A program made the translations under genes and the position numbers. From assembly GCA_024654525.1 (NCBI GenBank), contig JANLHI010000002.1, forward strand, positions 16,496 to 80,495: a stretch of DNA of 64,000 bases. Reading direction: 5' to 3'. Origin of the DNA: Patescibacteria group bacterium (GTDB taxonomy: Bacteria > Patescibacteriota > Minisyncoccia > UBA6257 > 2-01-FULL-56-20). The notes under the pieces were generated by a model that was not told the origin of the DNA, did no database searches, and saw only the letters and a list, made by a program, of their open reading frames with translations. Of the stretch, positions 2,976 to 46,834 are shown piece by piece. Position 1 is the first letter of the stretch. Every line of letters starts with the position of its first letter.

Positions 2976-3007
<32 letters not shown>

Positions 3008-3090
3008 CTTTGAAGTGTTCCCTTAAGTGGGGTAACGAGCGCAACCCCTATCGTGTGTTATATGTGTCACACGAAACTGCCCCCGCTAAA

Positions 3091-3165
3091 GTTCAGATGT
3101 TGGAAATCAGATATCAGATGTCGGATGAAATTCCGAAATCTGATATCCGAAATCTGATATCCGAT
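3091..3165 (+). other. Roughly 75-nt expansion hairpin inserted in the loop of 16S helix 40
   Basis: CCCCGCTAAA and TTTAGCGGGG flank the insert. The insert is built of ATCAGATATCAGAT and CCGAAATCTGATATC repeats. Confidence 0.6.
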
Positions 3166-3687
3166 TTTTAGCGGGGGAGGAAGGAGGGGACGACGTCAAA
3201 TCCGCATGGCCCTCTGATGCCCTGGGCCACACTCGTGTTACAATGAAGCCGACAATGCGTTGCGAACCCGTAAGGGGGAGCTAATCGTATCAAACGGTTT
3301 CTCAGTTCGGATTGAGGGCTGCAACTCGCCCTCATGAAGCTGGAATCGCTAGTAATCGCGGATCAGAACGCCGCGGTGAATACGTTCTCGAGTCCTGTAC
3401 TCACCGCCCGTCACGCCAAGGGAGCCGGGAATGGGTAAAGCCTCGCAAGGGGTTAACTCAAATTCGGTGACATGGGCGAAGTCGTAACAAGGCACGCGTA
3501 GCGGAAGCTGTGCGTGGAACAATTAAACTATACGTCGTAATTTTTAGATTTTAGGTGATAGGTGTTGGATGAAATATTCTAAAACCTAAAACCTTCAACC
3601 TAAAACTTATTTGATTGGAACAACTAAAAAGCTTTTATACTCCAGTGTCCGATATCAAATGTCGGGAAATGTGGTATACTTTTTTAC

Positions 3688-9094: not shown

Positions 9095-9814
9095 TTATTT
9101 CGTATATTCATCTTCAGCAGTAAGGCGTTTAGCGACTTTCTTATCGGATTCGATTGAACCATCCATAAGCCGGATAATGCGTTCCGCGTGTTCGGCGGTA
9201 GAGGTTTCATGGGTAATAAGTATGATTGTTTTTCCGTGTTTCTCATTAAGATTCTGAATGATCGACATAACGTTTTTTCCTGATTTTGAATCCAAATTTC
9301 CCGTCGGTTCGTCGGCAAAAATAATTTCGGGATCGTTCACTAAAGCACGCGCAATGGCGACGCGTTGTTTCTCTCCGCCAGAAAGCTCGGCAGGGCTGTG
9401 TTCCGCACGATGCGTGAGGCCAACCGATTCAACGGCATCTTGTGCACGCGTATTCCATTCGCGTTCGGGGATATTCGAATACATAAGAGGTAGTTTCACA
9501 TTTTCAAGTACCGACGTGCGAGGAAGAAGATTGAACATCTGAAATACGAATCCGATTTTTTCGTTGCGTATTTTTGCGAGTTCTTCCGAAGAATATTCCG
9601 CGATATTTTTTCCTTCAAGAAGATATTCACCGCGTGTAGGTTCATCAAGAAGTCCCAGGAGGTGCAATAACGTTGATTTTCCGCTTCCCGAGGGCCCCAT
9701 AATGGCAAGAAATTCGCCTTTCCGTACGGAAAAATTTACACCGCACAGTGCGTTAGTTTCCGTTTTTCCGTCTCGATATGACTTCGTAAGATCTTTTGCG
9801 TGAATAATATTCAT
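9095..9814 (-). CDS. ABC transporter ATP-binding protein (MacB/LolD-like)
   Basis: Walker [13 protein letters not shown] signature [15 protein letters not shown] and Walker [10 protein letters not shown] are present. Confidence 0.9.
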
Positions 9815-9841
9815 TAGTGGGGATACAACGCTGCAACGTTG

Positions 9842-11404
9842 CTATTGAGAGTACGCGACGATGTTGTCACCCTCGGAGAGTCCGGAGATGATTTCAACGT
9901 TTCCTTCGGATCCGCGAAGCCCCGTGGTTATTTCGCGATCCTCAATCCCTCCATCGGAGAGTATGACACTCACAAATCTTTTCCCATTGATTTCGCGAAC
10001 GGCTCGTTGGGGAATAACAAGAACGTCCTTTTTAATTCCGATTATCAAGTTTACATTTGCGGTCATGCCGGGTTTTATACGCGCGTCTTCCTTGTCGAGC
10101 GAAAATGTCGCTTTGTAGGTGGGGACACCTTCGATAATGGTTGCCGCCGGGTCAATGCTGATGATGATTGCAGAGAATATGATGTCGTTTCCATACGCAT
10201 CAAGAGTTACCATTGCGGAGTTTCCCACTTCCATTTTCGCGATATCCACTTCGGCGACATTCGATTCTATTTGCAATGCACCGTTTGAAATAATAGAAAT
10301 AATGGACTGATTTGCAGTAACAAGTGCTCCCACTTTTGAATCCTGACGAGTCACTATTCCGTTCAGAGGACTACGCAGTACACTTTTTTCAAGCTGTATT
10401 TGTGTGGTACGCAATGCCGCATCAAGCTGGCTTACCGTTGCTTCTTGTGCGGTAATGTCTTGCGGGTCGCTTCCGGCAAGTTTTAAATCAAGCTCGCTCT
10501 TTTTTTGTGCAACGTCTATTTTTTGAGTGGCGATTGATTCCACTTCTCCATTTATGTTGGAAAGAGCGGTGTCGATACTGGTACGTCCGGTGGCAACATA
10601 TGATTTGTAAATGAGTGCGGTAGCGGGATCAAGCGAGGATGCGGCCCCAGTGACTGCTTCCATGGTTTTATCAAGAAGTCTTCGCGTGGTCATGAGATAT
10701 GCGCGACTTTTAAGAAGCATGCTTTCAAGTACCTCATTGGAAGTTGAGGAAGTGATTGACGTAAGTTCACGTCCCCATGCGGTAAGATTATCACCGGTGA
10801 TAGCGCGCAACGACGAGGCATCTGTGGTCGTTTGAGTACTGTTTGCTTCGAAGGATAATGCCGCATTTGTGTGCTCATCGTTTATAAAGAGGGGATCAAG
10901 CTGTTTGCGAACAGTGTCATCCGTTTTGGAATATGCGTCGTGGAGTACATCGGGAACACCATTAAAAATATTAGAAAGATCCTGTTCTTCTTTTTCGAGT
11001 GATGTTTGGGCAATCGTTATGTCTTCGTCGCGAGGACCTCGGTTCAAAGCCTCGAGCCTTGCGAGTGCCACAGTCTTATTCGCTTCGGCTTGGTCGACTG
11101 CCGCAGTAAGTTCTCGAGTATCGAGTGAGACGAGTATGGTTCCCCGTGCAACACGTGTCCCCACATGGGCATATATGTTTGCTACCGTACCACTTTTCTC
11201 AAATCCAAGTTCGATGTCGTCTTTCGGCCTGATTTTCCCGGTTACGATTACTTCTTGCGTGATGGAACCGCGTAACACGGTGATAGTGCGTTCCGGTGCG
11301 TTCCCTCCGCGTTGTGAAAAGAATATCCACGTGCCAGTAATAACAACAACCACCACCACCCCGATCACATATTTCCTCTTTGAACTTTCAGCGGTATATT
11401 TCAT
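9842..11404 (-). CDS. HlyD/MacA-family periplasmic adaptor (membrane-fusion protein)
   Basis: An N-terminal TM anchor is followed by a lipoyl/beta-barrel region flanking a long coiled-coil hairpin. It is co-oriented with the ATPase and permease genes. Confidence 0.75.
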   Translation of the reverse strand: MKYTAESSKRKYVIGVVVVVVITGTWIFFSQRGGNAPERTITVLRGSITQEVIVTGKIRPKDDIELGFEKSGTVANIYAHVGTRVARGTILVSLDTRELTAAVDQAEANKTVALARLEALNRGPRDEDITIAQTSLEKEEQDLSNIFNGVPDVLHDAYSKTDDTVRKQLDPLFINDEHTNAALSFEANSTQTTTDASSLRAITGDNLTAWGRELTSITSSTSNEVLESMLLKSRAYLMTTRRLLDKTMEAVTGAASSLDPATALIYKSYVATGRTSIDTALSNINGEVESIATQKIDVAQKKSELDLKLAGSDPQDITAQEATVSQLDAALRTTQIQLEKSVLRSPLNGIVTRQDSKVGALVTANQSIISIISNGALQIESNVAEVDIAKMEVGNSAMVTLDAYGNDIIFSAIIISIDPAATIIEGVPTYKATFSLDKEDARIKPGMTANVNLIIGIKKDVLVIPQRAVREINGKRFVSVILSDGGIEDREITTGLRGSEGNVEIISGLSEGDNIVAYSQ

Positions 11405-11954: not shown

Positions 11955-13268
11955 TTGAACCAAAAAGGATTTGCAAACATAGTAATGCTTATTGTCGCAG
12001 CCCTCGCTATCGCCGGAGTAGGCGGTTATTTCGTTTTGAATCGGCAGGCGCCATTACCGGAACCTACGCCGACACCAACACCGAATCCAATTGAAAATCC
12101 TAGTCCGACCCCAACTCCTATTCAAATTCCCAAACAGCCTGCTCAATTCCAAAATCCTAAAAATATTCCGCAAGCTCATAATACTTTCGGATTTAATTCC
12201 ATCAAGATACTTGTCAAAGAAGAAGGAAATAAAAATGTTTTTATTTCGCCTTCCAGCATCGCTTTGGCGCTGTCTATGGTCTATAACGGCGCAAATGGAG
12301 AGACAAAAAATGCCATGCAGAAAACTTTACAATTTCAAAATTTGGACATCGCTACTGTCAATCAAGAAAGTTTAGGACTTATCAACAGCTTAAAAAATCC
12401 TGATCCGAAAGTAGAACTTTCGGTGGTAAATTCAGTATGGGCAAGAAATGGTGTAGATTTTAAGAAAGATTTTCTAAGTGCGGTTGGAAGTTATTTTAAC
12501 GCCGAGATTTCAACTCTTGATTTTTCCAACTCAAATGCGGCAAACACAATAAACGCTTGGGTTGATAAAAATACTAAAGGAAAAATACCCACCATAGTAA
12601 CTCCTCCTATTCCGTCAGATATGGTGATGTATCTTATCAACGCGGTTTATTTTAAGGGAAGCTGGACTACTGAATTTGATAAGAAATTAACAGAAGACAG
12701 AAATTTTACTACTGCTGATGGTGTTTCTAAAAAACATCCGCTTATGCGACAGTATGGTGATTTGCCATATCTTGAAATGGAGGATTTCCAAAGCGTGAAT
12801 CTTCCATATGGTACAAACAAGCGATTAAGTATGTATGTATTTTTGCCAAAAAATCTCAATAGTTTTGTTCAAACTTTGGATACGAATAAATGGAATGATT
12901 GGATGAAACAATATAAAGAAACAGAAGGCACTATATTGCTTCCGAGATTTAAAATGGAATACGAAAAGGGATTGATACCGATGCTGACACAGCTAGGTAT
13001 GGGAGTTGCATTTCAAGATAACGCTGACTTGACTGGCATTGGTGATAGTCTAAAAATCAGCGAGGTCAAACATAAAACCTATGTTGATGTAAATGAAGAA
13101 GGGACGGAAGCCGCCGCGGTAACAAATGTGGGTGTAGGCACTACATCAGTTATGCCGGCGCAAAAAACATTCTACATGGAAGTCAACCGTCCTTTCTTCT
13201 TTGTGATTAGAGACAATCAAACCCAAGAGGTATTGTTCATGGGAACAATACAAAATCCTTCTAAATAG
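11955..13268 (+). CDS. Serpin (serine protease inhibitor) with an N-terminal membrane anchor and a Pro/Thr-rich linker
   Basis: FISPSSIALALSMVYNGANGETK, NAVYFKGSWTTEFD, the hinge/reactive-centre loop EEGTEAAAVTNVGVGTTSVMP and the C-terminal FFFVIRDNQTQEVLFMGTIQNP are all serpin motifs. Confidence 0.85.
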   Translation: MNQKGFANIVMLIVAALAIAGVGGYFVLNRQAPLPEPTPTPTPNPIENPSPTPTPIQIPKQPAQFQNPKNIPQAHNTFGFNSIKILVKEEGNKNVFISPSSIALALSMVYNGANGETKNAMQKTLQFQNLDIATVNQESLGLINSLKNPDPKVELSVVNSVWARNGVDFKKDFLSAVGSYFNAEISTLDFSNSNAANTINAWVDKNTKGKIPTIVTPPIPSDMVMYLINAVYFKGSWTTEFDKKLTEDRNFTTADGVSKKHPLMRQYGDLPYLEMEDFQSVNLPYGTNKRLSMYVFLPKNLNSFVQTLDTNKWNDWMKQYKETEGTILLPRFKMEYEKGLIPMLTQLGMGVAFQDNADLTGIGDSLKISEVKHKTYVDVNEEGTEAAAVTNVGVGTTSVMPAQKTFYMEVNRPFFFVIRDNQTQEVLFMGTIQNPSK

Positions 13269-26260: not shown

Positions 26261-28216
26261 ATGAAAAATATCTTTGAACAATTAGTAGATTTATTAAAAA
26301 AAGATGAGCGCCTTGTTTCGCAAGACGGCGTGCTTTTGAAAAATCAAGTGCAGGAATTGGCTAGGAAAAATGATCCAGCTTTGATTAAGCTTTTACTTTC
26401 CGACAAGGCGATAAAACAGCACTTCTTTTTTGAAGTAGAAAAAACGCTGATTTTTGATAAAGAAAAGTTTATCCGCTTTGTTTCTAATAAACAATTTTTA
26501 CCGGATTCCTATACTGCGTTTAAAAATAAAATCGGCTTAACTGCTGGCGATGAATATGTGAGCGAAAACAAAGAAGTGGTTTTAACTTGGCCTTATAAGG
26601 ATTGTGTTTTGGAAGGCGGAATGACCAAAGAAGACCAAAAGAGGGATGAGATTTTTTATAATGAAACATTAGCGCCGGACGATATCAATCGCCTACTGGA
26701 CGCCAAAGTTTTTACCAATTTCAAACGGATAGACAAAAAAGGCGAACACAAACTGGACGGCTTCAAGCGCGATGAAAAAGGTACGATTAAAGACAATTTG
26801 ATTATTAAAGGCAACAACTTGCTCGCGCTTGCTTCACTTAAAAAAGAATTCGTCGGAAAAGTGAAGCTGATTTACATTGATCCGCCGTATAACACAGGTG
26901 ATGACGGATTTAATTATAACGATACATTCAACCATTCAACATGGATGACCTTCTTAAAAAATCGATTGGAAATAGCTAGAAAAATGCTGACCAAAGATGG
27001 ATCGATTTTTATCCAAATTAATGATATCGAAGAAGCATATCTAAAGGTGTTATGTGATGAGGTTTTTACTCGGGAAAACTTTCATACGAGCATATGCGTG
27101 CAAATGTCTCATTTGAGCGGAGTAAAAATGGCGCACAAAGATAAGAAATTACCTAAAATTAAAGAGTATGTCTTATTTTATACAAACTCACCAAAGATTA
27201 AATTAAACCCACAATATGTTCCAGCTAGTTGGGATGAAGCACTAGAGCGATATTCTTCATTCGTAGTTAAAGAAAATTATACTGATGATGAGTGTGAAAA
27301 ATGGAAGATTATTCCACTAAACAAAGCGATCAAAGATAGTGGCGTTGATATAAAAGACAAAAAGGCAGTAACTGATTTCAAATTAAAAAATGCAGACTTA
27401 ATATTTAGAACTGCAAGAAATAGAGGGGCAGATTATTCAGCATACAATCCTAATTGTTTTAATAAAGTCACCAACCCCGACGAATCATATTATTTTGTTT
27501 ATAAAGGAGAAGATATAAGTTTTGCAGCGGACAAGGTTATTTCTATAAACGGTAAATTGACTCCAGTTGTTGCTTTGGGGGATATTTGGACCGATATCGG
27601 AATAAATAATCTATCAAATGAAGGTGGTGTGGATTTAAGATTTGGAAAAAAACCTGAAAAGTTGATAGAACGAATAATTAAGCTAATATCTAATTCAGAC
27701 GATGATATTATCGTGGATTTTTTTAGTGGATCAGGAACTACCGGTGCTGTTGCTCATAAATTGAAAAAGCGATATATCCTCATTGAGCAATTAGCTGATC
27801 ATATTAATAAATCTATTGCAAGAATTAAGAATGTAATCAAAGGTGAACAAAGTGGGATAAGTAAAGATAATGATTGGAAAGGTGGCGGAGATTTTGTCTA
27901 TATGGAACTTGCTAAATGGAATGAGGAATGGATAGAAAAAATTGAAAAAGCCAAAACCGGCAAAGAACTCGCTAAACTTTGGGATGAGATGAAAGAAACC
28001 GTCTTTTTGAGCTACAAAGTCGATCCGACAAATGTTGATGCAAATGCCAAAGATTTTGCGGAATTATCTATTGCCGATCAAAAGAAATTTTTGATTGAGT
28101 GCTTGGATAAAAATCAGCTTTATGTAAATTTGAGCGAGATTGAGGATAGAGAGTATGGGGTGAGTAAAGAGGATATAAAGTTAAATAAAGAGTTTTATGA
28201 AAAAGATAGCTTTTAA
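26261..28216 (+). CDS. mod: Type III restriction-modification N6-adenine DNA methyltransferase (Mod)
   Basis: Motif IV (IYIDPPYNTG) precedes motif I (VDFFSGSGTTGAVA), which is beta-class order. The 651-aa length is typical for Mod. Confidence 0.85.
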   Translation: MKNIFEQLVDLLKKDERLVSQDGVLLKNQVQELARKNDPALIKLLLSDKAIKQHFFFEVEKTLIFDKEKFIRFVSNKQFLPDSYTAFKNKIGLTAGDEYVSENKEVVLTWPYKDCVLEGGMTKEDQKRDEIFYNETLAPDDINRLLDAKVFTNFKRIDKKGEHKLDGFKRDEKGTIKDNLIIKGNNLLALASLKKEFVGKVKLIYIDPPYNTGDDGFNYNDTFNHSTWMTFLKNRLEIARKMLTKDGSIFIQINDIEEAYLKVLCDEVFTRENFHTSICVQMSHLSGVKMAHKDKKLPKIKEYVLFYTNSPKIKLNPQYVPASWDEALERYSSFVVKENYTDDECEKWKIIPLNKAIKDSGVDIKDKKAVTDFKLKNADLIFRTARNRGADYSAYNPNCFNKVTNPDESYYFVYKGEDISFAADKVISINGKLTPVVALGDIWTDIGINNLSNEGGVDLRFGKKPEKLIERIIKLISNSDDDIIVDFFSGSGTTGAVAHKLKKRYILIEQLADHINKSIARIKNVIKGEQSGISKDNDWKGGGDFVYMELAKWNEEWIEKIEKAKTGKELAKLWDEMKETVFLSYKVDPTNVDANAKDFAELSIADQKKFLIECLDKNQLYVNLSEIEDREYGVSKEDIKLNKEFYEKDSF

Positions 28217-28826
28217 AACTTACGAACAAATAAAAAATCTACTCCGGATAACAGGGTACTTATTCTGGTGGATCATACCCTTTGCTTTATTTATACTGGC
28301 CACATATTTACCGAAATTTATTTGGAATATTAGTTTTAATGACTATTTAAATTTTATAAAGATTCTAGTCTGGCCCATATCAGCCTTGATTATTTTATTT
28401 TTCTTTAAAAAGGTGATAACTTACCTTTTCTTTTCCATTGATGGCTTTAATTTTTTTGGCGCCAAAGGAGAAATAAAAAATGTATATGACCTAATAACGG
28501 AAAAAGTCAACGAAAGATTTGAAAATGAAAAAAGAGAGGCCGCAAGAGAAACCGAGGTAAATAGACTACAAAGAGAAATTGAAACAAATTCAGGAAGGGC
28601 GGATGAAAATTTAAAGACTGCAAAGGAGATTTTAGCAGAATGGAAAAAATCTAACACGGATAATAAGAGACTTTTGGAGGAAAATAAGCAACTAAGGGAC
28701 GCAATTGAGAGAAAAAATCAATACTCTGGCAATTTTCCGCCTGTTTCTGGAGAGTCAGAACTTGGTACTGGTAATAAGGTTGATAATAGTCAACCCGTGG
28801 CTCCTTCCAATGAAGAAAAAATATGA
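28197..28826 (+). CDS. Hypothetical membrane protein with a C-terminal coiled coil, embedded between mod and res
   Basis: Two or three N-terminal TM helices are followed by a K/E/R-rich coiled coil. The start overlaps the mod 3' end by 20 nt. Confidence 0.5.
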   Translation: MKKIAFKTYEQIKNLLRITGYLFWWIIPFALFILATYLPKFIWNISFNDYLNFIKILVWPISALIILFFFKKVITYLFFSIDGFNFFGAKGEIKNVYDLITEKVNERFENEKREAARETEVNRLQREIETNSGRADENLKTAKEILAEWKKSNTDNKRLLEENKQLRDAIERKNQYSGNFPPVSGESELGTGNKVDNSQPVAPSNEEKI

Positions 28827-29089
28827 ATAAATATTTAATAACTTACGATTTGAAAAATAAGTCCATAAGGGATTACCAATCACTTTTTATTGCCATAAAA
28901 AGTCTTGGCCCATGGTGGCATTATTTAGAGTCAACATGGATTGTTAAAACTAATTTAAATTCCCAACAAATATGGAATACTTTAGGCCAACACTTACTCA
29001 CAAATGACCATATTTTAGTTGTAAAAATTGATAATAGTGATAAGTGGGGATGGTTACCACAAGATGCATGGAATTGGCTAAACACATAA
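28823..29089 (+). CDS. Small Trp-rich hypothetical protein (88 aa), embedded between mod and res
   Basis: ATGA start/stop overlap with the upstream ORF. The stop lies 7 nt before res. The pattern YLITYDL...DHILVVKI suggests an alpha/beta fold. No recognisable family. Confidence 0.45.
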   Translation: MNKYLITYDLKNKSIRDYQSLFIAIKSLGPWWHYLESTWIVKTNLNSQQIWNTLGQHLLTNDHILVVKIDNSDKWGWLPQDAWNWLNT

Positions 29090-29095
29090 TAAATT

Positions 29096-31780
29096 ATGCT
29101 TTACGACGAATTTAACTCATATAAAAACTTTGCCGGCGCTGATGTTTTCAAAAACAAAGCGACAGAAAAATCAGATGTTTTGAAAAATCTCAATCCGGCT
29201 TTTCCGGCGCGCGAATATCAGAAGGAAGCACTGGGGCGGTTTTATTATTATTGTGAGGAATATCACCAAAAACAAAAGCCAATTCATTTGATGTTCAATA
29301 TGGCGACTGGTTCGGGGAAAACGCTCATAATGGCGGCGAATATTTTGTATTTATACCAAAAGGGCTACCGTAATTTTATTTTTTTTACTCGTTTGGGTAA
29401 CATTATTCAAAAAACCAAAGCAAATTTTCTTGATCTAAGTTCTAAAAAATATTTGTTTGCCGACAAAATCACTCTTGGCGGACAGGAAATAAAAATCAAA
29501 GAAGTTGATAATTTTGAAGGTGTAAATGATGATGATATCAATATTATTTTCTCTACCACCGCGCTTTTACACTCTCGTTTCAATTTTGCTCGCGAAAATG
29601 TTTTAACTTACGAAGATTTTGCGGAAAAGAAAATTGTTTTGATTGCTGATGAAGCGCACAACCTATCTGTGGAAACAAATAGCAAGATAAGCAAAACCGA
29701 AGAAGAAGACCGCCGAAACTGGGAAAATACAGTAATGCGGATTTTGAACGCCAACAGCCAAAAGGATAATGTGCTTTTGGAGTTTACGGCAACGGCTCGA
29801 TTAGAACAGGAATATCCTGAGATTTTGGAAAAATACAAAGACAAAGCGATTTATCGTTATGATCTGAAAGAATATCGCTTGGACGGGTTTTCAAAAGATG
29901 TGCGAACTTTGCAGATAAACGCGCCGATTATGGAACGAGCTCTTTCGGCGGTGATTATTTCGCAATATCGCCGTAAGGTGGCAGAAAAGTATAAAATCGC
30001 ACTAAAGCCAGTGGTTATGTTTAAGGCCAACAGAGTAAGTATTCCCAAAGAAGGAATATCCAAGGAACATAATCCGCAAATTGTCGTTTCAAACATTTTC
30101 AAAGACTCTTTTCATAAACTTATTTCTGAACTAGACGAAAAACACCTAAAACAGCAAACAGCAATAAAAAACGCAACATTGCAAAAAGCATTTCAATTTT
30201 TCAATGAGCAAAAAATTACTCTTGTGGATTTAGCGGCAGAAATGAAAAGCGATTTTGCACCGGAAAAATGCTTGACGGTTGATGAAGATAAAGATTTAGA
30301 GCAAAAACAAATTTTACTTAATTCACTAGAAGATCAAAACAATGAAATCCGCGCTATTTTTGCGACAGAAAAATTGAATGAAGGTTGGGATGTTTTGAAT
30401 CTTTTTGATATTGTCCGGATTTACAACAGTCGTGACGAAAAAGGCAATAAACCGGGAAAAACAACTGTGCAAGAGGCGCAACTTATCGGGCGAGGCGCAA
30501 GGTATTATCCTTTTACTCTTGGTGAATTTACTGACCCATATAGAAGAAAATTCGATACTGATATACAAAATGAATTACGGATATTGGAACAACTTTATTA
30601 TCATAGCGTAACGAATTCTAAGTACATTTCTTTACTAGAAGGAGTTTTGGTTCGTGAAGGTATTATGCCATCACGCACAGTGCAAAAAGAGATTAAAATT
30701 AGAAGCGATTTTAAAAACAGCGATTTTTGGAAGAAAGGCTATATTTTCTTAAATTCTCGCAAGGAAAATTTAGGAAAAGATGTTTTTACTCTCTCGGACG
30801 CCAAAGCAGAATTCGACCATAACGCTGAAATAAACATCTTTCAACTACCAACGCGAGAAGCGATAGAAAAAGATTTGTTTGTTGCTGGTGCTGGCGCCGG
30901 AGTAAAGGCAAAAATTAAAATCCGAGATTTTAGAATTGCTGATTTCGGAACACATATTGTCCGCATCGCTTTGGCAAAAATATCATGCGGACAGTTTTGT
31001 GAACTTAAAAAGATTTTCGGTAACATAGAATCCGCAAAAGATTTTATTTCAAATGAAAAATATCTTGGAGGCATAAAAATTAAGGTGAAAGGTACAAACG
31101 AGCAAGTAGAAAATCTTTTGCAGATTGAAAAGTTGAATATTACCGGATTTGTGATTGATAAAGTATTGGAAGTCGCCGGCAAAGAGAAAAAGGAATACTA
31201 CGGAACAAAGGAGTTTAAAGCTCACCTGATCCAAAAAATATTTGAAAATGACAAGGTGTTGCAATTAGATAGCGAAAGTCCGCGAGCGCAAAATATGCGA
31301 GATTTTGATTTTTCTTCTCGGGATTGGTTTGCTCAAAACGAAATCTGGGGAACGAGCGAGGAGGAATCATTTTTGCGTTTTATTGATGAGGCAATAACAA
31401 AGCTAAAAAAGAAATATCAAGATGTTGCACTATTTCGTAATGAGCAGTTTTTCAGAATCTACGGCTTTGAAAACGGTGAGCCGTTTTATCCCGATTTCGT
31501 TTTGTTTTTGACGGAAAAGAAAACAAAGCAAGAAGTTATGTATCAGATTTTTGTTGAGCCAAAGGGCAATCAATTTTTGGATGCACAAAATACTTTTGAG
31601 CATTCAAAAGAGGGTTGGAAGCAAAAACTATTGGTTGAGATAGAAAAAAGTCATATTGTTGAGTTGAGGATAGAAAGTAAGGATTTTCGTTTGGTTGGTT
31701 TGCCTTTCTTTAACGAGGGACAGGTGAATAGTGCCTTGCGTGAAAAGTTTGAAGAGGTGTTTGAAAAAAAATTATTATAA
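29096..31780 (+). CDS. res: Type III restriction endonuclease (Res) subunit
   Basis: A REYQ motif, Walker A MATGSGKT and DEAH box IADEAHN are present. The C-terminal nuclease-like segment reads PDFVLFL...IFVEPKG (PD-(D/E)xK). Confidence 0.85.
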   Translation: MLYDEFNSYKNFAGADVFKNKATEKSDVLKNLNPAFPAREYQKEALGRFYYYCEEYHQKQKPIHLMFNMATGSGKTLIMAANILYLYQKGYRNFIFFTRLGNIIQKTKANFLDLSSKKYLFADKITLGGQEIKIKEVDNFEGVNDDDINIIFSTTALLHSRFNFARENVLTYEDFAEKKIVLIADEAHNLSVETNSKISKTEEEDRRNWENTVMRILNANSQKDNVLLEFTATARLEQEYPEILEKYKDKAIYRYDLKEYRLDGFSKDVRTLQINAPIMERALSAVIISQYRRKVAEKYKIALKPVVMFKANRVSIPKEGISKEHNPQIVVSNIFKDSFHKLISELDEKHLKQQTAIKNATLQKAFQFFNEQKITLVDLAAEMKSDFAPEKCLTVDEDKDLEQKQILLNSLEDQNNEIRAIFATEKLNEGWDVLNLFDIVRIYNSRDEKGNKPGKTTVQEAQLIGRGARYYPFTLGEFTDPYRRKFDTDIQNELRILEQLYYHSVTNSKYISLLEGVLVREGIMPSRTVQKEIKIRSDFKNSDFWKKGYIFLNSRKENLGKDVFTLSDAKAEFDHNAEINIFQLPTREAIEKDLFVAGAGAGVKAKIKIRDFRIADFGTHIVRIALAKISCGQFCELKKIFGNIESAKDFISNEKYLGGIKIKVKGTNEQVENLLQIEKLNITGFVIDKVLEVAGKEKKEYYGTKEFKAHLIQKIFENDKVLQLDSESPRAQNMRDFDFSSRDWFAQNEIWGTSEEESFLRFIDEAITKLKKKYQDVALFRNEQFFRIYGFENGEPFYPDFVLFLTEKKTKQEVMYQIFVEPKGNQFLDAQNTFEHSKEGWKQKLLVEIEKSHIVELRIESKDFRLVGLPFFNEGQVNSALREKFEEVFEKKLL

Positions 31781-31784
31781 ACTT

Positions 31785-32306
31785 ATGAAAATCAACACTT
31801 TGACTGGTTCAACAGGCTCACCGCAAGCAAGCTCAGTGCGAGGCAACACATTCAAACTCATCATCTCGCTTATTATTCCACAATTGGCAGGAGGTCTGGG
31901 GAGCTTCTTTACCATCAGTTCGGTGAAAGATTGGTATCCGATGCTGGAGAAGCCCTTGCTCAATCCGCCAGCATGGATATTTGGTCCGGTCTGGACGACG
32001 TTGTTTCTTTTGATGGGCTACGCGCTGTATCTTGTCTGGAAGGACGAGAGCGGAAAAAGCAAACGCCTGGCCTACTTCGCTTTTGGGATTCAAATGGTTT
32101 TAAATATGCTATGGTCAATTATCTTTTTCGGTCTGCACAGTCCGGGCGGTGCGCTTATTGAGATCGTATTCCTTTGGCTCGCCATTCTTGCCACGTTTGT
32201 TGCTTTTGCGAAAATATCAAAACCGGCGGCGTGGCTCTTGTTGCCCTATATCCTCTGGGTCAGCTTTGCTATGTATTTAAACTATTCAATCTGGATGCTT
32301 AATTAG
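31785..32306 (+). CDS. tspO: TspO/MBR-family (tryptophan-rich sensory) membrane protein
   Basis: WYPMLEKPLLNPPAWIFGPVWTTLFLLMGYALYLVW and LWSIIFFGL are hallmarks of the TspO family. The start ATG follows 2 nt after the res stop. Confidence 0.8.
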   Translation: MKINTLTGSTGSPQASSVRGNTFKLIISLIIPQLAGGLGSFFTISSVKDWYPMLEKPLLNPPAWIFGPVWTTLFLLMGYALYLVWKDESGKSKRLAYFAFGIQMVLNMLWSIIFFGLHSPGGALIEIVFLWLAILATFVAFAKISKPAAWLLLPYILWVSFAMYLNYSIWMLN

Positions 32307-35231: not shown

Positions 35232-35513
35232 ATGAAAAATAAGGGCAAAAAAGCAATATATATATCTGTAGCTGAGCTGGCAAAAATTCTTGGCATTAGT
35301 CGTATTGCTGTATTTAATAAAATAAAGAAAGGACAAATTCAAGCTGAAAAAATTGGACGTTCTTATGCTATTTCGATGGAACATGTTAATGAAATAATTT
35401 CTGGTTCTAGCTCTGGGGTATTAACAGAAGAGAAAAAGGAAGACATAAAAAAAGCTGTAGAAAAAGTTGTAAAAGAATATGGAGAAACTTTAAAACTTCT
35501 CGGTAGAGAATAA
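35232..35513 (+). CDS. Excisionase-family HTH DNA-binding protein (putative antitoxin)
   Basis: ISVAELAKILGISRIAVFNKIKKGQIQAEKIGRSYAI is an excisionase/MerR-like HTH. It lies 3 nt upstream of the Doc gene. Confidence 0.6.
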   Translation: MKNKGKKAIYISVAELAKILGISRIAVFNKIKKGQIQAEKIGRSYAISMEHVNEIISGSSSGVLTEEKKEDIKKAVEKVVKEYGETLKLLGRE

Positions 35514-35515
35514 TT

Positions 35516-35941
35516 ATGAAATTGAAGCAACTTACAATTGTAGATATAGAGTATGCAGCACATCGCTTAGCAAAAGAAACAATGAGTTGGAATAAACCGA
35601 TTCCTGATTTTAGTACTCGATATACTAATACTCTTGAAAGATGTGTTGAGGCACCGTTTCAATCATTCGGAGGAAGACAGCTATACCCCGGACTAATAAA
35701 AAAAGGTGCCATACTTTTTTATTTTATGATTAAAAATCATCCATTTCAAAATGGAAACAAAAGATTGGCTATGACGACATTATTCATATTTCTTTTTCAA
35801 AATAAAAAATGGCTTAAGGTTGATAATCAGGAATTATATAATTTTGCTCGTTGGGTTGCAGAAAGCAACGCAAAATTAAAAGAAGACACTGTTCGCGCTG
35901 TCGAAACATTCCTAATTAATTATATAACTGATATTCATTAA
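35516..35941 (+). CDS. doc: Doc-family toxin (Fic/Doc fold)
   Basis: Doc motif HPFQNGNKRLA. 141 aa. Confidence 0.8.
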   Translation: MKLKQLTIVDIEYAAHRLAKETMSWNKPIPDFSTRYTNTLERCVEAPFQSFGGRQLYPGLIKKGAILFYFMIKNHPFQNGNKRLAMTTLFIFLFQNKKWLKVDNQELYNFARWVAESNAKLKEDTVRAVETFLINYITDIH

Positions 35942-40251: not shown

Positions 40252-40491
40252 TTGATTATGGAGGATAATTACGGTATGGATATGCTTGCATTGTTATGCG
40301 GTGTTGTGGGGCTTCTTGTTATCTCCCGCGCGGTGTGGTTGCGGAATGAGCGTGCGCAGGATGAATGGTTTATTGTCGGGGGCATACTACTTTTGGTGTA
40401 CAGCGTAAGCATCGGGAGCGCAATATTCACCATTCTTCAGTTGGTATTTATTCTTTCGGCGTTTTGGGAACTGAAAAAGCTACGGAAATGA
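40252..40491 (+). CDS. Small hypothetical membrane protein
   Basis: Two TM helices. It overlaps the tspO2 start by ATGA. Confidence 0.3.
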   Translation: MIMEDNYGMDMLALLCGVVGLLVISRAVWLRNERAQDEWFIVGGILLLVYSVSIGSAIFTILQLVFILSAFWELKKLRK

Positions 40492-40982
40492 GTGCGTTTT
40501 TCAAACTTGTTTTTACGATAGGAATATCCGAACTTGCGGGAGTTTCCGGTTCTATTTTTACCGTGCCGGCGATTTCTTCCGGGTGGTACGCGACGTTGGA
40601 GAAACCCGCACTCACACCGCCTTCGTGGGTGTTTGCTCCCGTGTGGACGATACTTTTTGCGCTCATGGGAATATCACTTTTCCTTGTGTGGCGTGCACAT
40701 TCCAATATTTTGCAAAATATTGGAATGTTGCCGATGTGGCATTTGGCATTCTTTGTATTTGCGTTCCAGCTTTCGCTTAATGTGTTATGGTCAATGATGT
40801 TTTTTGGATTACAGAGCACTGCGGGAGCGTTGGTGATAATTATTTCTCTTTGGTGCGCTATTCTTGCGACTATTTTGGTATTTGGAAAAATTTCCCGTGT
40901 GGCGGCATGGCTTTTAGTGCCGTATATCGTATGGGTGAGCTTTGCGGCATATCTTAATTATTCAATCTGGATTCTTTCTTGA
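40488..40982 (+). CDS. tspO: TspO/MBR-family membrane protein (second paralog)
   Basis: GWYATLEKPALTPPSWVFAPVWTILFALMGISLFLVW. The start was adjusted to the MSAFFKL ATG. Confidence 0.8.
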   Translation: MSAFFKLVFTIGISELAGVSGSIFTVPAISSGWYATLEKPALTPPSWVFAPVWTILFALMGISLFLVWRAHSNILQNIGMLPMWHLAFFVFAFQLSLNVLWSMMFFGLQSTAGALVIIISLWCAILATILVFGKISRVAAWLLVPYIVWVSFAAYLNYSIWILS

Positions 40983-42051: not shown

Positions 42052-43305
42052 TTATCGGGGAAATATGGTGTCCCACACCGCGCCTGCCGCGTTTTGGATT
42101 TTTCCTTTGAAGGGATAATGGTGGTTGTCCAAAAAGGGAAGACTATTACATTCAATCACTCCGGAGCGTGGTTGTTCTTTCCATGACGTGCCAATGTCGC
42201 GAATTATAAAGTCGATTCCCACAATGGGATCGTCAAAATACGTGCCGATACGATTGAAAAGTGCAATATTCTCCGGATGAGTCGTGTCTGTCGCGTCTTC
42301 CGTGGTGCCTCCGTAACACCAGTTTATTTTTTGATGAAGAGGAATAATGACGCCGTGCGCAGGAATACTTTCCCATGTGAGCCCTTGGCGTTGAAGTTCG
42401 TCTTCCGCTCCATCGCCGGTCGCGAGTTTCGAGAAAATTGGTCCCTGTCGCAGGGGATTTTTATTTTCTTCCACGACAAGTTCTCTAATGGTGTGCGTGC
42501 CGTCCCCGATAACTTGCGCGGAGTCTCGTCGGATAACCCCCACGGTTTTCCTGTCAATGACGGTTGCGCGAAATACCGAACCGAAAAGCTCTTCTTCTAT
42601 GATGACCCACGGAGAAAGTTTGCGTGCAATACGAAATGCATGCACAAACGATTCTTCATCTTCGAGGTGAATGAATGTATGACGGCTTCCCGAGCCAAGC
42701 GACGGTTTTACGATTACGGGCTTATGAAGCGTACGAAATAGTTTTCGCGCTCCTGCAATCGTGGCGCGCGCACCACCCGCGGCAACGGGGAATCCCTGTA
42801 CGAGAAATTTTTTTTTCATGATGCGCTTGTCATCCATCCAAAGAAGAGCGTGAGAAGGACGCCCTTTTCGCGGAAGTCCTTCGAATGCAATTTTTGTGCC
42901 ACGGTATTCCGCAAGGAAAAGCTCTTTTACTTTATTAAAAAGGCGAAATTGACGCATAGTGATACCGCGCCTGATTGCTTCTTCCCACATACATCGCGTA
43001 CGGAGTGAATCGCGTTCATCGGGTGCGTGGGTAACAGTGCCGAGTCGGAGTGCCACAAGAACAGGAACAAGGCGCCACGCAAGGGGAGTCCATATTTTTT
43101 GAAACAGGGGAACAAGGTATCGCCATGTCATATCCACGGAAAAAAATACCGGACGCGTAACGGTTTCGATAAAACCGTTTAACCACTCGGCAAAGTGTAA
43201 AGTAGGGGACCCGCTACAGTGCGGGCAAGTTTCTCGTTTCATTGGTATTAACGATAGCAGTATCGGGAGAAAGGGAAACTTGACATTATAGCACTTTTTA
43301 TGCAA
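42052..43305 (-). CDS. ATP-grasp domain protein (RimK / cyanophycin-synthetase-like)
   Basis: KPVIVKPSLGSGSRHTFIH and surrounding ATP-grasp features are present. The GC content is higher than in neighbouring genes. Confidence 0.55.
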   Translation of the reverse strand: MHKKCYNVKFPFLPILLSLIPMKRETCPHCSGSPTLHFAEWLNGFIETVTRPVFFSVDMTWRYLVPLFQKIWTPLAWRLVPVLVALRLGTVTHAPDERDSLRTRCMWEEAIRRGITMRQFRLFNKVKELFLAEYRGTKIAFEGLPRKGRPSHALLWMDDKRIMKKKFLVQGFPVAAGGARATIAGARKLFRTLHKPVIVKPSLGSGSRHTFIHLEDEESFVHAFRIARKLSPWVIIEEELFGSVFRATVIDRKTVGVIRRDSAQVIGDGTHTIRELVVEENKNPLRQGPIFSKLATGDGAEDELQRQGLTWESIPAHGVIIPLHQKINWCYGGTTEDATDTTHPENIALFNRIGTYFDDPIVGIDFIIRDIGTSWKEQPRSGVIECNSLPFLDNHHYPFKGKIQNAAGAVWDTIFPR

Positions 43306-43345: not shown

Positions 43346-43564
43346 ATGAATGAAAAAAATAAAGAAAATACAAGGCTATTTTTCCTTGTTATGGTCTCTA
43401 TTCCGATCATCGTATGGTGGTGGGTACGAGTCGTGAATAGTCCTTATGGTCAATATGCCTTTGAAGGGATACCCTTCGGGTGGAAGGGGCTTCTATTCTA
43501 TTGCTTGATCCAGGGAATGGGAGTGTTTTTTCTTACTCGTTGGCTATTAAAGAAATTCTTCTAG
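43346..43564 (+). CDS. Small hypothetical membrane protein
   Basis: Two TM helices, followed by a terminator. Confidence 0.3.
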   Translation: MNEKNKENTRLFFLVMVSIPIIVWWWVRVVNSPYGQYAFEGIPFGWKGLLFYCLIQGMGVFFLTRWLLKKFF

Positions 43565-43587
43565 GAAAGACACGAAAAAAAATAAAA

Positions 43588-43613
43588 AGGGCAGTCATCA
43601 GCTGCCCCTTTTT
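43588..43613 (+). terminator. Rho-independent terminator
   Basis: GGGCAGTCATCAGCTGCCC hairpin followed by T5. Confidence 0.6.
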
Positions 43614-43843
43614 AATACATACAAAGACTTGACTATATAAAAATATTATGCATAATATTTAAGCCTTATCCAAGTGAAAATTATCGCATTGTTGCGAGTG
43701 AGAATGGATGGGATTAGTACATTAATGTTATGAAAAAATCTAAAAAGAAAGTACCGAAGAAAGATTCTTCTTCGGAGGAGTTGTGGGCGAACCGGGAACC
43801 GGTTGCTCAAAAAATGACACCGGAGGAGAGTAAAAACTACAAC

Positions 43844-43900
43844 AAAGGAAGGGAGATTTTGGGCATCTCGCCCAATGAACTCCCCAGTGCGCAGAAGTAA
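43844..43900. repeat. Copy 1 of a roughly 55-nt repeat (GGGAGATTTTGGGCAT.TCGCCCAATGAACTCCCCAG...AAGTAA)
   Basis: About 88% identical to the copy at 45930-45986. Contains nested GGGAG/CTCCC and GGGC/GCCC stems. Confidence 0.7.
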
Positions 43901-43949
43901 GTTATTCGCTCTAACATTCGAGAAAGGAGAAAAATTATGCAAAAAAAGA

Positions 43950-43977
43950 AAAGGCGACCGTAAGGTTCGCCTTTTTT
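43950..43977 (+). terminator. Rho-independent terminator downstream of repeat copy 1
   Basis: AAGGCGA...TCGCCTT hairpin followed by T6. Confidence 0.6.
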
Positions 43978-44154
43978 GATTGGTGAAATAGATAGAGATG
44001 GGCATCTTTAGTGGTCTTGAAAGATGCCTCTCTTACGTTGTGTCCATGAATTTGCAATGGGATATACCAAGGTATAGAGTGTGGTGGGCTGTAAGTAATA
44101 GCCCAAATCGGACAACCTGTCCTTTGATAGGACTAAATATGGAAGGAATCAGTT

Positions 44155-45177
44155 ATGCAGAAATCTAGAAATTTTCGGGCGATGCTCGAGAAGAAATGGG
44201 ACGAGGGGAAACATATCTGTGTCGGGCTTGATCCCGATATGGAGAAAATTCCACAACATATCAAAGATGCGGCGGTAAAGAAAACTACACCGGGACAATC
44301 GTCAATTGGGCGCACGATTATCGGTTTTTGCCGTGCGATTGTGCACGCAACGAAAGACCTCGTGTGTGCCTTCAAGCCAAACATCGCCTTCTTCGAAGCG
44401 TTCGGACCGGAGGGGTTTTGGATATTCGCCGATGTGGTGAAGATGGTGCGGGACGAGGCGCCCGATGTGGTTCTTATCGGTGACATGAAACGGGCTGACA
44501 TCGGCAATACGAACAAGGGGTACGCCACGGGAGCGTTCGAATGGTTAGGCGTGGATGCCATTACCGTGAATCCCTACTTTGGAGGCGGTTCACTCGCTCC
44601 TTTCCTTGATTTCGAAAAGAGGGAAGTGGGAATTAACAGGGGCGATTGCGGTGTTATCGTTCTTTGTCGCACCTCGAATCCTGAGGCGGCGGAATTTCAA
44701 GATCGGCTGACGTTGGTGCTAGCAGAAGATGTTGAAACAGAGCGCGGGATACTTCTTCGATCGGGGGTAACTAACGAAATTTCCAAAGCGTGGAGTACGG
44801 TAACGCTGGATGGAAAATTGTATTGTGCGATGCCGCACTACCAATGGGTGGCCCTTCGGTTTGCAAGCCGTTGGAGTTATAACGGAAACTGCGCGCTCGT
44901 GGTGGGCGCAACGGCACCGCAAGAGCTCGCCGATGTGCGTGCCCTTGTGGGAGATCTTCCGCTCTTAATTCCCGGAATCGGGTTTCAGCAAAAAGGTGTG
45001 CCGATTGAAGATCAGATAGAGCGCGCAGTGAATGCAGGAAGGGACAGTCGCGGTCGCGGGTTTATCCTCAATGACTCGCGAGGGACTCTCTATGCCTCAA
45101 GCGGAGATGACTTCACGGATGCGGCACGGGCAAGAGTCAATAAACTAAACGAATTAGTCAGGCAAAATCTGAAGTGA
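44155..45177 (+). CDS. pyrF: Orotidine 5'-phosphate decarboxylase, long type 2 form
   Basis: ICVGLDPDMEKIP plus a conserved KxxDIGNT region (DMKRADIGNT). 340 aa. GGAAGGAA lies upstream. Confidence 0.85.
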   Translation: MQKSRNFRAMLEKKWDEGKHICVGLDPDMEKIPQHIKDAAVKKTTPGQSSIGRTIIGFCRAIVHATKDLVCAFKPNIAFFEAFGPEGFWIFADVVKMVRDEAPDVVLIGDMKRADIGNTNKGYATGAFEWLGVDAITVNPYFGGGSLAPFLDFEKREVGINRGDCGVIVLCRTSNPEAAEFQDRLTLVLAEDVETERGILLRSGVTNEISKAWSTVTLDGKLYCAMPHYQWVALRFASRWSYNGNCALVVGATAPQELADVRALVGDLPLLIPGIGFQQKGVPIEDQIERAVNAGRDSRGRGFILNDSRGTLYASSGDDFTDAARARVNKLNELVRQNLK

Positions 45178-45190
45178 AAGAGGAAAAAGT

Positions 45191-45925
45191 ATGAAAGATA
45201 TCCTACAGTTGGGACCAAAAGGTATTCTTGCGCTTGACCCCGGGGAAGTGGACCGTCCACTTACCGCACCGGAGGTGGTGTATATTGCAAAAACACTCGG
45301 CGCCTTTTGGGAGTATGACTACGCGGCGGCGAATGTGGGACGAGTCGGTATGCATGCCATACTCAAGTCGAAGCGGCACAGCGACGGATTTTTTGTGTCG
45401 AGGATTCTCCTCGAGTCGGATAATATCTGTCGCATCATGGCGGATCAGATTGTGATGCGCCTCCGGAGTGAGAGCATTCCTTGTCCCGACTGTGTCATTG
45501 GCATACCCGATGGCGCTACCAAATTGGGACGCGATGTCGCCAAGACATTGGGTGTGCGTAAGGTGGAAATGGAGAAACTCGTCGGACGGCTCGTGCTTAA
45601 GGATGCAATTCCCGATGACGCGAGCGTGCTCCTCGTCGAGGACTTTTGCACGCGGGGTACCGGTTTTAAGGAAGCGGTTCTCGAAGTGAAAGGCAAGCAT
45701 CCATCGGTGAAAGTCGTTCCGTATGACCCCGTTATCATCAATCGTGGGGGATTGCGGGATTTCGAAGTCGAGGGAGTCGGACGTTTCACAGTACTCCCTG
45801 TTGTCGAGCGGCGCGTGCAGGACTGGGAAGCGGATGAGTGTCTGTTGTGTCCTCAAGGTTCGACACCCATCAAACCAAAAGAAACAGACGCTAATTGGCG
45901 GCTTATCAACGAATCACAACATTAA
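45191..45925 (+). CDS. pyrE: Orotate phosphoribosyltransferase-like type I PRTase
   Basis: PRPP-binding motif VLLVEDFCTRGTG. It sits 13 nt after pyrF, with GAGGAAA upstream. Confidence 0.65.
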   Translation: MKDILQLGPKGILALDPGEVDRPLTAPEVVYIAKTLGAFWEYDYAAANVGRVGMHAILKSKRHSDGFFVSRILLESDNICRIMADQIVMRLRSESIPCPDCVIGIPDGATKLGRDVAKTLGVRKVEMEKLVGRLVLKDAIPDDASVLLVEDFCTRGTGFKEAVLEVKGKHPSVKVVPYDPVIINRGGLRDFEVEGVGRFTVLPVVERRVQDWEADECLLCPQGSTPIKPKETDANWRLINESQH

Positions 45926-45929
45926 GCTA

Positions 45930-45986
45930 AAGGGAAGGGAGATTTTGGGCATATCGCCCAATGAACTCCCCAGCACCCAAAAGTAA
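45930..45986. repeat. Copy 2 of the roughly 55-nt repeat, immediately after the pyrE stop
   Basis: See copy 1. Differs by a G-run length and a few substitutions. Confidence 0.7.
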
Positions 45987-46006
45987 AAGAAAAAATAAAA
46001 CAAGAA

Positions 46007-46031
46007 AAAGGCATCTGCAAAGATGCCTTTT
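46007..46031 (+). terminator. Rho-independent terminator downstream of repeat copy 2
   Basis: AAAGGCATCTGCAAAGATGCCTTTT. Confidence 0.65.
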
Positions 46032-46150
46032 CTAATTCCATTTTTTCCAAAAGTACCACTTATCCACAAACATCTTATCTCTTGTAGGGTATAATATAAT
46101 CACGATCAAAGGTCGAAGGTGTTATTAGGGGTAATAAAATTTAAATTCAC

Positions 46151-46834
46151 ATGGTAGTACAAGATTGGACGAATGTGGTGGCTAATTCCCTCCAGAACCT
46201 TTGGCTGGGAGTAGCCGGCTTTCTTCCGACGCTCATTGGTGCGCTTGCGGTTCTTTTGGTAGGACTCATTGTTGCATTTGGCGTGGGGACGGCAGTTGAA
46301 AAAATATTTCAGGCATTGAAGCTCGATACGTTTCTTTCGAAACTCGGACTTAGTCATTATTTTGAACGCGCAAACCTTAAACTGCGTGCCTCTTACTTTT
46401 TGGGGCAGTTAGTGTACTGGTTTGTCGCAATCGCGTTTCTCCTTGCGGCGTCGGACATATTGCAGCTCAATGCACTTTCTGAATTTTTGAAAGATGTGCT
46501 TGGGTATCTTCCGAACGTGATTCTTGCGGTGTTGATCATGCTTGCGGCGGTGATTGTGGCGAACTTTGTGCGCCACATCGTACGCGCATCGGTGATGAGC
46601 GCGAAGCTTCACGCAGGACGATTTCTAGGAACGCTTGCATGGTGGTCGGTGGTGGTGTTTGGTTTGTTGACCGCGTTGGTTCAATTGAACGTAGCGGTAA
46701 GCATTATCAATAGCATTGTAACCGGCTTTATTGCAATGCTCGCAATCGCGGGAGGACTTGCCTTCGGATTGGGGGGTCGTGATTATGCGGCGTATCTTAT
46801 CAATAAGCTTCGGGAGCACACGGAATCTCGATAA
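46151..46834 (+). CDS. Membrane protein with repeated 'conserved TM helix'-type segments (small MscS-like N-terminal architecture)
   Basis: Three similar hydrophobic modules, for example LPNVILAVLIMLAAVIVANFVRHIV. Confidence 0.45.
   Translation: MVVQDWTNVVANSLQNLWLGVAGFLPTLIGALAVLLVGLIVAFGVGTAVEKIFQALKLDTFLSKLGLSHYFERANLKLRASYFLGQLVYWFVAIAFLLAASDILQLNALSEFLKDVLGYLPNVILAVLIMLAAVIVANFVRHIVRASVMSAKLHAGRFLGTLAWWSVVVFGLLTALVQLNVAVSIINSIVTGFIAMLAIAGGLAFGLGGRDYAAYLINKLREHTESR

Follow-up and report, generated by a model that had tools for sequence, protein, structure and literature searches.

A probably resident pyrF-phosphoribosyltransferase operon bracketed by two copies of a hairpin-terminator module in a Patescibacteria contig

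Introduction

In known pyrF-pyrE operons, paired genes provide the last two steps of uridine monophosphate (UMP) synthesis. A locus of this kind is described here from a 64-kb window, the whole stretch of DNA that was analysed, from one genome and lying on a Patescibacteria (candidate phyla radiation, CPR) contig. In this window pyrF, encoding a predicted orotidine-5′-phosphate (OMP) decarboxylase, is followed by a gene for a phosphoribosyltransferase (PRTase), and the pair lies between two copies (R1 and R2, together R) of a 57-nt direct repeat, each of which is followed by a predicted intrinsic terminator (T1 and T2). The pair is like the known operon in its enzymes and in its tight layout, with a 13-nt gap between the genes, one putative promoter and one terminator. 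It differs in its PRTase, which is of a Patescibacteria type, extended at its N-terminus and carrying a CxxC...KPK..NW motif at its C-terminus, and which scores under the PF00156 and TIGR01367 cutoffs, and in the absence of pyrB, pyrC and pyrD from the neighborhood.

Several other described systems share features with the flanking repeats. Palindromes of the repetitive extragenic palindromic (REP) and bacterial interspersed mosaic element (BIME) types occur at the 3′-ends of genes, and R is like them in being short, species-specific and imperfectly palindromic, and in lying past a stop codon beside a terminator; unlike them, it has two copies in 64 kb, both at the same locus and both pointing the same way, and their flanks were duplicated along with them. 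Genes between imperfectly palindromic direct repeats, as found here, are also a feature of integron cassettes with their attC sites and of att-flanked islets, but the ends of R lack GTTRRRY/RYYYAAC core sites, no integrase or recombinase is encoded in the 64 kb, the interval has its own putative promoter and two genes, and its right-hand junction is one of ancestral synteny. PyrR-dependent attenuators of Bacillus pyr operons have a similar repeated hairpin-then-terminator layout beside pyrimidine genes, whereas the window has no PyrR-site match, no antiterminator common to both modules and no pyrR gene, and its predicted promoters are downstream of the terminators. T1 and T2 are themselves like intrinsic (Rho-independent) terminators, being G+C-rich stem-loops with U-tracts that end both units and whose pairing is kept by compensatory changes; unlike plain terminators, each is preceded by a better conserved 34-nt two-stem hairpin, formed by R, that belongs to no known family and would be dispensable for termination. 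A search of the literature on pyrE and pyrF in CPR bacteria, and on loss of the anti-Shine-Dalgarno sequence, found nothing specific.

A first-pass annotation of the window had interpreted the locus as a horizontally acquired two-gene cassette, inserted by duplication of a repeat/terminator unit. The analysis reported here instead favors a resident operon bracketed by a locally duplicated 3′-end module, a reading to which we give moderate confidence.

Results

The predicted PyrF protein passes the curated equivalog cutoff of TIGR02127 (pyrF_sub2) over its full length (193.6 bits against a cutoff of 110.6, residues 8-324) and matches PF00215 with 75.5 bits, and is thus identified from its profile as a type 2 OMP decarboxylase. 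The PRTase scores below the curated cutoffs of both PF00156 (17.3 against 26.3 bits) and TIGR01367 (29.6 against 150.25 bits). When a profile of the PRTase family was compared with PDB, orotate phosphoribosyltransferases (OPRTases) were the top hits (4paw_A, E = 5.7e-11; 2wns_A, E = 3.9e-5), and 9 of the 11 hits were OPRTase or UMP synthase. This remote homology, together with the linkage to pyrF, suggests that the PRTase is probably a divergent OPRTase. Homologues of PyrF numbered 7072 with E≤0.001, the best being 56-62% identical, and the 312 homologues of the PRTase, about 244 aa in length with a conserved C-terminus, reached 52-63% identity; those with a named source were all Patescibacteria for PyrF, and Patescibacteria likewise for the PRTase. 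The relationships of the two proteins, which the first-pass annotation had proposed as a check on a foreign origin, thus speak against one, since all close homologues are of Patescibacteria type. Its observation that the interval between the repeats holds only a long type 2 pyrF (TIGR02127) and a PRTase-like gene was borne out, as was the lack of other de novo pyrimidine genes nearby: no pyrB, pyrC, pyrD or carAB domains were found when the ∼60 open reading frames (ORFs) of the window were put through Pfam. The salvage shortcut to OMP that it envisaged is plausible, as seen from one 64-kb window, and the pyrF-PRTase pair may use imported orotate.

Gene order was compared among 34 species-representative genome loci that carry a PRTase of the window type. 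In 22 of these pyrF adjoins the PRTase gene, an operon arrangement that is usual in the phylum; an intrinsic terminator lies just past the PRTase gene in nearly all 34. In two of the related loci, L008 (Liptonbacteria) and L011 (Paceibacterota), pyrF, the PRTase gene and a gene for a mechanosensitive (MS)-channel-like protein follow one another in the same order as in the window, the channel-like proteins being 68% (L008) and 69% (L011) identical to that of the window, and in a neighbor-joining tree the window PRTase is the sister of the L011 PRTase. Given this shared order of PRTase and channel genes and the sister position of the L011 PRTase, the right-hand junction of the interval is inherited and ancestral. 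Insertion into a formerly empty site, as first proposed, is contradicted by L008 and L011, both of which keep this gene order. In all three genomes the channel-like gene is preceded by a putative promoter of the TGGTATAAT type, and the motif AAAGGTCGRA is conserved in its 5′-untranslated region (window 46095-46150; L008 10900-10955; L011 6940-7030).

The GC content and Shine-Dalgarno (SD) motifs that had been taken to set the two genes apart from native genes were found to be shared with relatives. The GC excess is real but modest: pyrF (0.522) and the PRTase gene (0.532) are about 1.6-1.7 standard deviations above the mean of 64 ORFs (0.436, standard deviation 0.055), and the adjoining channel, ATP-grasp and KH genes have values of 0.49-0.51. 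The same genes exceed the GC content of their own locus in related genomes, pyrF in 21 of 21 loci and the PRTase gene in 27 of 31. SD-like motifs (GGAAGGA and AGAGGA) do precede both window genes but are weak. At its 3′-end (window 3500-3529) the 16S rRNA has GGAACAAUUAAACU where the bacterial model has GGAUCACCUCCUUU, so that the CCUCC anti-SD sequence is absent, and no CCTCC was found within 700 nt; since the 16S tail lacks CCUCC, the SD-like motifs of pyrF and the PRTase gene would have no pairing partner. In the window an SD-like 4-mer precedes only 9 of 59 genes, and ATAAT, AATAA and TAATT are enriched 5-6 times at positions -20 to -1 of start codons. L008 and L011 likewise have SD-like motifs before pyrF and the PRTase gene and A/T-rich leaders on the neighboring genes. 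The contrast in GC and SD motifs is a trait of the gene family and no sign of recent arrival, and because the same excess and the same motifs recur in relatives, it is not diagnostic of transfer. The 16S gene (1836-3529) is 1694 nt long against 1533 positions in the model, with insertions of ∼50 and 72 nt near its 5′-end. Insertions in 16S genes are frequent in CPR bacteria; those of the window, and the listing of its proteins by NCBI under 'Patescibacteria group bacterium', place the contig in Patescibacteria.

R1 and R2 are direct repeats, identical at 51 of 57 positions (89%), so the repeat pair of the first-pass annotation is real. The 37-nt core of R occurs exactly twice in the window, against no matches in 100 shuffles, and a covariance model built from the R1-R2 pair and run with filters off found no third copy there; within the window, the proposed search for further copies thus ended with these two. 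Against 36 related loci the same model found none, the best score (L020, E = 0.12) being at chance level, and the pattern GGGAG-N3-TTGGGC-N5-GCCCAA-N4-CTCCC, in which only the stems are kept, had no hits in three public collections of genome, metagenome and viral contigs. Nor was there a match to R in Rfam 15, which includes the PyrR binding site: the best score in the scanned stretch (43560-46160) was 31 bits against a gathering score of 47, from a terminator look-alike, all known structured RNA families scored under their gathering thresholds, and a relaxed E-value returned only further terminator look-alikes.

The homology between the two copies extends to the right of R, through an A-rich spacer and into the terminator, more weakly than in R itself but at a score reached by none of 500 shuffles; the homology is thus longer than the ∼55 nt first reported. 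The position of the duplicated unit on both sides of pyrF and the PRTase gene was correctly described. A hairpin with a U-tract does follow both repeats, as had been noted, at ∼47 nt (R1 to T1) and ∼17 nt (R2 to T2) rather than at 50-60 nt, and module 1 has a ∼25-nt insertion of its own between R and the aligned spacer. T1 and T2 are both present in minimum-free-energy structures calculated with RNAfold as G+C-rich stem-loops with a U-tract, and at the 3′-ends of transcription units such structures are predicted to be intrinsic terminators. Their stems differ by compensating changes (GGCGACC/GGUUCGCC against GGCAUCU/AGAUGCC). A further hairpin downstream of T1, H2, has a stem that is nearly that of T2, with an alignment score reached by 4 of 500 shuffles. 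On the left the homology stops sharply, 4 nt past the stop codon of the second gene, and the left flanks of the two modules show none (433 of 500 shuffles score as well). Since there are only two copies, like-oriented and 2 kb apart at a single locus, and since their flanks were duplicated as well, the copies point to one local segmental duplication.

Both copies of R are predicted to fold into a two-stem hairpin, GGGAG-AUU-UUGGGC-loop5-GCCCAA-UGAA-CUCCC. The six differences between R1 and R2 all spare the 29 bases of the stems and internal loops (P about 0.014), and R is conserved far above the co-duplicated spacer and terminator. Because R outlasts its own flanks in this way and is unchanged in stems and internal loops, the comparison argues for selection on R as a hairpin, and R is probably functional. 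Readings of the palindrome as a kink-turn, dif/Xer site, attC or parS were dropped from the sequence, tandem G-A pairs, arm/spacer geometry and core sites being absent. It was also considered whether R2 might be the frameshifted true C-terminus of the PRTase; this was ruled out since the PRTase ends in the intact family tail (...PIKPKxTDxNWRLIxxSQ) at normal length, so that R2 is no part of it.

Duplicated hairpin-plus-terminator modules, unrelated in sequence to R, were also detected in two related pyr loci, L008 (z = 10.5) and L024 (z = 8.9). In L008 one module lies past pyrF and the other past the PRTase gene (9773-9845 and 10751-10822). In L024 a tandem pair is located before the PRTase gene and one module after it, with compensatory stem changes (1411-1512, 2269-2297, 6021-6040, 6885-6904 and 7095-7124), and the L024 element is present in L012 as well (533-559). 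Since it is both dispersed in L024 and found in L012, small species-specific palindromic repeats near terminators do exist in the phylum.

The history of pyrF itself appears to differ from that of its neighbors. The nearest relatives of the window PyrF (58-62% identity) adjoin non-orthologous PRTases, of the classical type in L004 and of a third type, 26-27% identical to that of the window, in L044 and L045. Where the PRTase is of the window type, the adjoining pyrF is instead of type 1, or of type 2 with just 25-47% identity, and these pyrF types are mixed among the branches of the PRTase tree. Only 13 nt separate pyrF from the PRTase gene in the window; in L008 and L011 the spacing is about 250-320 nt and includes a terminator. 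A 12-mer, GGTGGGCTGTAA, is common to the pyrF leaders of the window and of L001. Because the relatives of PyrF sit beside other PRTase types and the window-type PRTases beside distant pyrF genes, and in view of the shared 12-mer and the short gap, pyrF alone was likely swapped within the phylum. The idea of horizontal acquisition is therefore retained for pyrF, as a probable replacement within the phylum, and not for a foreign two-gene cassette, against which synteny, Patescibacteria-type homologues and family-wide GC all speak.

The pyrF promoter is putative, assigned by analogy with TGGTATAAT in L001; a consensus scan gave no call at the window site. A structured 5′ leader just past a TATAAT-like box is common to long type 2 pyrF genes (L001 1650-1705, L004 585-640, L044 920-965 and L045 95-150), with an inner hairpin enclosed in an outer stem; from locus to locus the two strands of the outer stem change together (UGAAGC/GCUUCA against AAGGGG/CCCUUU). 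In the leader alignment 6 of 15 predicted pairs have compensatory changes. The window leader (44083-44105) corresponds to the inner hairpin alone, without the outer stem. From its predicted structure, the type 2 pyrF leader may be an undescribed pyrF leader RNA.

Features of the pyrF-PRTase locus are collected in Table 1. The small ORF that ends in R1, orf56, had no homologue but itself among 5.8 billion proteins and no match in Pfam or NCBIfam. An 8-codon mini-ORF with a canonical AAGGAG 7 nt upstream (43924-43963 together) extends across the 5′ side of the T1 stem and has its stop codon in the T1 loop; such an arrangement upstream of pyrF resembles that of a leader peptide and is odd in an organism without an anti-SD sequence. 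To the left of the locus, and diverging from it, is a gene on the minus strand (42052-43305) for an ATP-grasp protein of only 417 aa that resembles the ligase portion at the C-terminus of cyanophycin synthetase or GshAB. Its TIGR02068 score, 180 bits, is far under the cutoff of 850, and the gene is not beside the operon in the relatives examined.

Table 1. Positions and basis of features at the pyrF-PRTase locus (window coordinates).
Feature	Position	Strand	Basis and remarks
Promoter-like site	43629..43658	+	TTGACT-16/18-CATAAT/TAATAT, consensus match only; upstream of small ORF/transcript ending in R1-T1
orf56, orphan 56-aa ORF (NCBI hypothetical protein NUV53_00355)	43730..43900	+	ORF list; last 18 codons and stop are R1
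R1	43844..43900	+	57-nt repeat copy; hairpin core 43851-43884
Mini-ORF MQKKKRRP*	43937..43963	+	Read from sequence; module 1 only
T1, predicted intrinsic terminator	43947..43981	+	AAAAGGCGACC-GUAA-GGUUCGCCUUUUUU; RNAfold; aligns with T2 including A- and T-tracts
H2 hairpin	43996..44033	+	GGGCATCTTT...AAAGATGCC; inverted and direct repeat; stem nearly that of T2; without T-tract
Putative pyrF promoter and 5′ leader	44052..44154	+	TTGCAA...TATAGA; leader hairpin GGGCU-N9-AGCCC at 44086-44104
pyrF, predicted orotidine-5′-phosphate decarboxylase, long type 2, 340 aa	44155..45177	+	TIGR02127, PF00215
PRTase, 244 aa, probably divergent orotate phosphoribosyltransferase	45191..45925	+	Homologue family, profile, pyrF linkage
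R2	45930..45986	+	57-nt repeat copy; hairpin core 45937-45970; begins 5 nt past PRTase stop codon
T2, predicted intrinsic terminator	46003..46033	+	AAAAAGGCAUCU-GCAA-AGAUGCCUUUU; bidirectional in form; RNAfold and consensus scan
MS-channel-like membrane protein, conserved downstream neighbor	46151..46834	+	PF05552

Elsewhere in the window, the clearest islands of low GC content (0.31-0.36) are at 26261-31780, which encodes a type III restriction-modification system (Mod 26261-28216, Res 29096-31780), and at 35232-35941, with an HTH_17 and Fic pair. Recent transfer is more credible for these islands than for the pyr genes. A full-length serpin (11955-13268; PF00079, E = 7e-112) and two TspO/MBR paralogues (31731-32306 and 40365-40982) are unusual cargo for a small CPR genome.

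Discussion

Taken together, these findings make it fairly probable that the pyrF-PRTase operon is resident and that the 3′-end module on either side of it was duplicated locally, with no foreign cassette inserted. The operon, of Patescibacteria type, would combine pyrF with the gene for a divergent OPRTase, leading from orotate to OMP and on to UMP, and would have its own promoter, leader and terminator. The module would consist of the 57-nt hairpin element, the A-rich spacer and an intrinsic terminator, with one copy on each side of the operon: copy 2 (R2-T2) would end the operon itself, and copy 1 (R1-T1 together with H2) would end a short upstream transcript and so shield the operon from upstream transcription. 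The two copies would stem from local duplication within the lineage, and the PRTase and downstream channel genes would have been inherited vertically. Together with its promoter and leader, pyrF was probably swapped in from another Patescibacterium, replacing an older pyrF beside the resident PRTase gene, in which case R1-T1-H2 would be the left edge of the replaced segment. A 57-nt stem-loop at the 3′-end of both transcripts might serve in stability, processing or protein binding. In this account the anatomy, the synteny, the family-wide composition and the lack of further copies in the window are observed, and the way the module was duplicated, the swap of pyrF and what the hairpin does are inferred.

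Several observations weigh against this account. Copies of R were counted in 64 kb of one genome, and further copies are possible elsewhere. The closest relatives in the searched databases have about 60% protein identity, and the order of duplication and swap is reconstructed rather than observed. A blastx search of 43560-44154 for traces of a former copy of pyrF, the PRTase gene or orf103 returned nothing below E = 1; two variants of the history, tandem duplication followed by decay and an old pyrF to the left of R1, therefore have no direct support. The stem of T2 is closer to that of H2, whereas its flanks are closer to those of T1, so the right-hand extent of the duplicated unit is ambiguous. 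Finally, when R is read in the frame closed by the TAA common to both copies, 5 of the 6 differences between R1 and R2 affect the third base of a codon (P = 0.018 for a single frame; 0.05 once three frames are allowed for), a pattern that a constraint on peptide coding fits as well as one on RNA.

The two other accounts of how the genes came to lie between repeats differ in what they make of the module. If pyrF and pyrE were a foreign cassette whose insertion duplicated a pre-existing repeat/terminator unit, the presence of exactly two genes between direct repeats would follow directly, and their GC content at the top of the window range, their SD-like motifs in a genome mostly without them and the lack of other pyr genes in the window would be in keeping. 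This is very unlikely, however, given that the PRTase gene adjoins the channel gene in L008 and L011 also and its product is the sister of the L011 PRTase, that the GC excess and SD-like motifs are family-wide, and that the homologues are all of Patescibacteria type. The interval also lacks the marks of a horizontally acquired islet, the composition being shared by orthologues, the synteny uninterrupted in L008 and L011, and no mobility gene present: no integrase, transposase or recombinase was found in or beside the interval among the ∼60 window ORFs, and att and attC features are lacking, R1 being followed by GTTATTC, in which the purines fail at positions 5-6 of a core site, and R2 by AAGAAAA. 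Moreover, the copies differ by 11% in R and by far more in spacer and terminator, which does not fit a fresh target duplication. Somewhat less improbable, but still unlikely, is that R is a dispersed palindromic repeat near terminators, similar to REP or to miniature inverted-repeat transposable elements (MITEs), that flanks the operon by chance or through a preference for intergenic sites. The analogous hairpin element of L024 is dispersed in this manner, with at least six copies in 8.2 kb and one more in L012, and the species-specificity of such elements would account for the lack of hits elsewhere. Against this stand the small number and placement of the copies, only two in 64 kb, 2 kb apart and in the same orientation, and a homology that runs into the spacer and terminator, indicating one segmental duplication rather than two 57-nt insertions.

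Other explanations concern what R does. The R-T modules could be cis-regulatory attenuators in which a trans-acting factor or ligand stabilizes R and so controls read-through of T1 and T2, in the manner of PyrR. A hairpin followed by a terminator upstream of each of two transcription units is in keeping with this, the stems and internal loops of R are invariant where those of the terminators have drifted, the GGGCAUCU of R could pair, as read from the sequence, with the AGAUGCC 3′ arm of H2 or T2, and duplicated hairpin modules are found in the L008 and L024 pyr loci too. Attenuation nevertheless seems quite improbable. No PyrR site and no other Rfam family was matched, and past the terminators one promoter seems to serve pyrF and another the channel gene. 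In module 2, where the loop is AUAUC, the alternative pairing is weak; in module 1 the terminator proper, T1, is not complementary to R; and no candidate regulator is encoded nearby. R might alternatively be coding and specify the last 18 residues of a small protein (KGREILGISPNELPS[A/T]QK), with R1 in orf56 and R2 in a +1-frame ORF over the 3′-end of the PRTase gene (45723/45835-45986). To the excess of third-position differences can be added that 4 of the 6 are synonymous, the other two falling in one codon and changing Ala to Thr, and that the block of high identity stops exactly at TAA in both copies. The corrected P of about 0.05, the lack of an orf56 homologue, the dissimilarity of the two ORFs upstream of R, and the fact that avoidance of the hairpin explains the same differences equally well (P = 0.014) leave only a very slim chance for this reading. 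There is also a small chance, about that given to attenuation, that R is a lineage-specific functional RNA, present in two copies so that one trans-acting factor controls 3′-ends or read-through of both the upstream transcript and the pyr operon. If so, the independently duplicated modules of L008 and L024 would suggest that regulation of this design has arisen repeatedly around the operon, and evolves fast, in scavengers of pyrimidine precursors.

On the reading favored here, that of a resident operon with a duplicated 3′-end module, the locus is an ordinary operon with a minor unexplained repeat and no new kind of system. It illustrates that a gene pair in Patescibacteria can look foreign, with higher GC content, SD-like leaders and flanking repeats, and yet be resident. 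As the contrast is carried along with the gene family, transfer in these genomes is poorly judged from composition alone. The pyrF-PRTase pair is widespread in the phylum, with pyrF types that appear to be exchanged between lineages, which fits a life style in which orotate may be taken up and converted to UMP.

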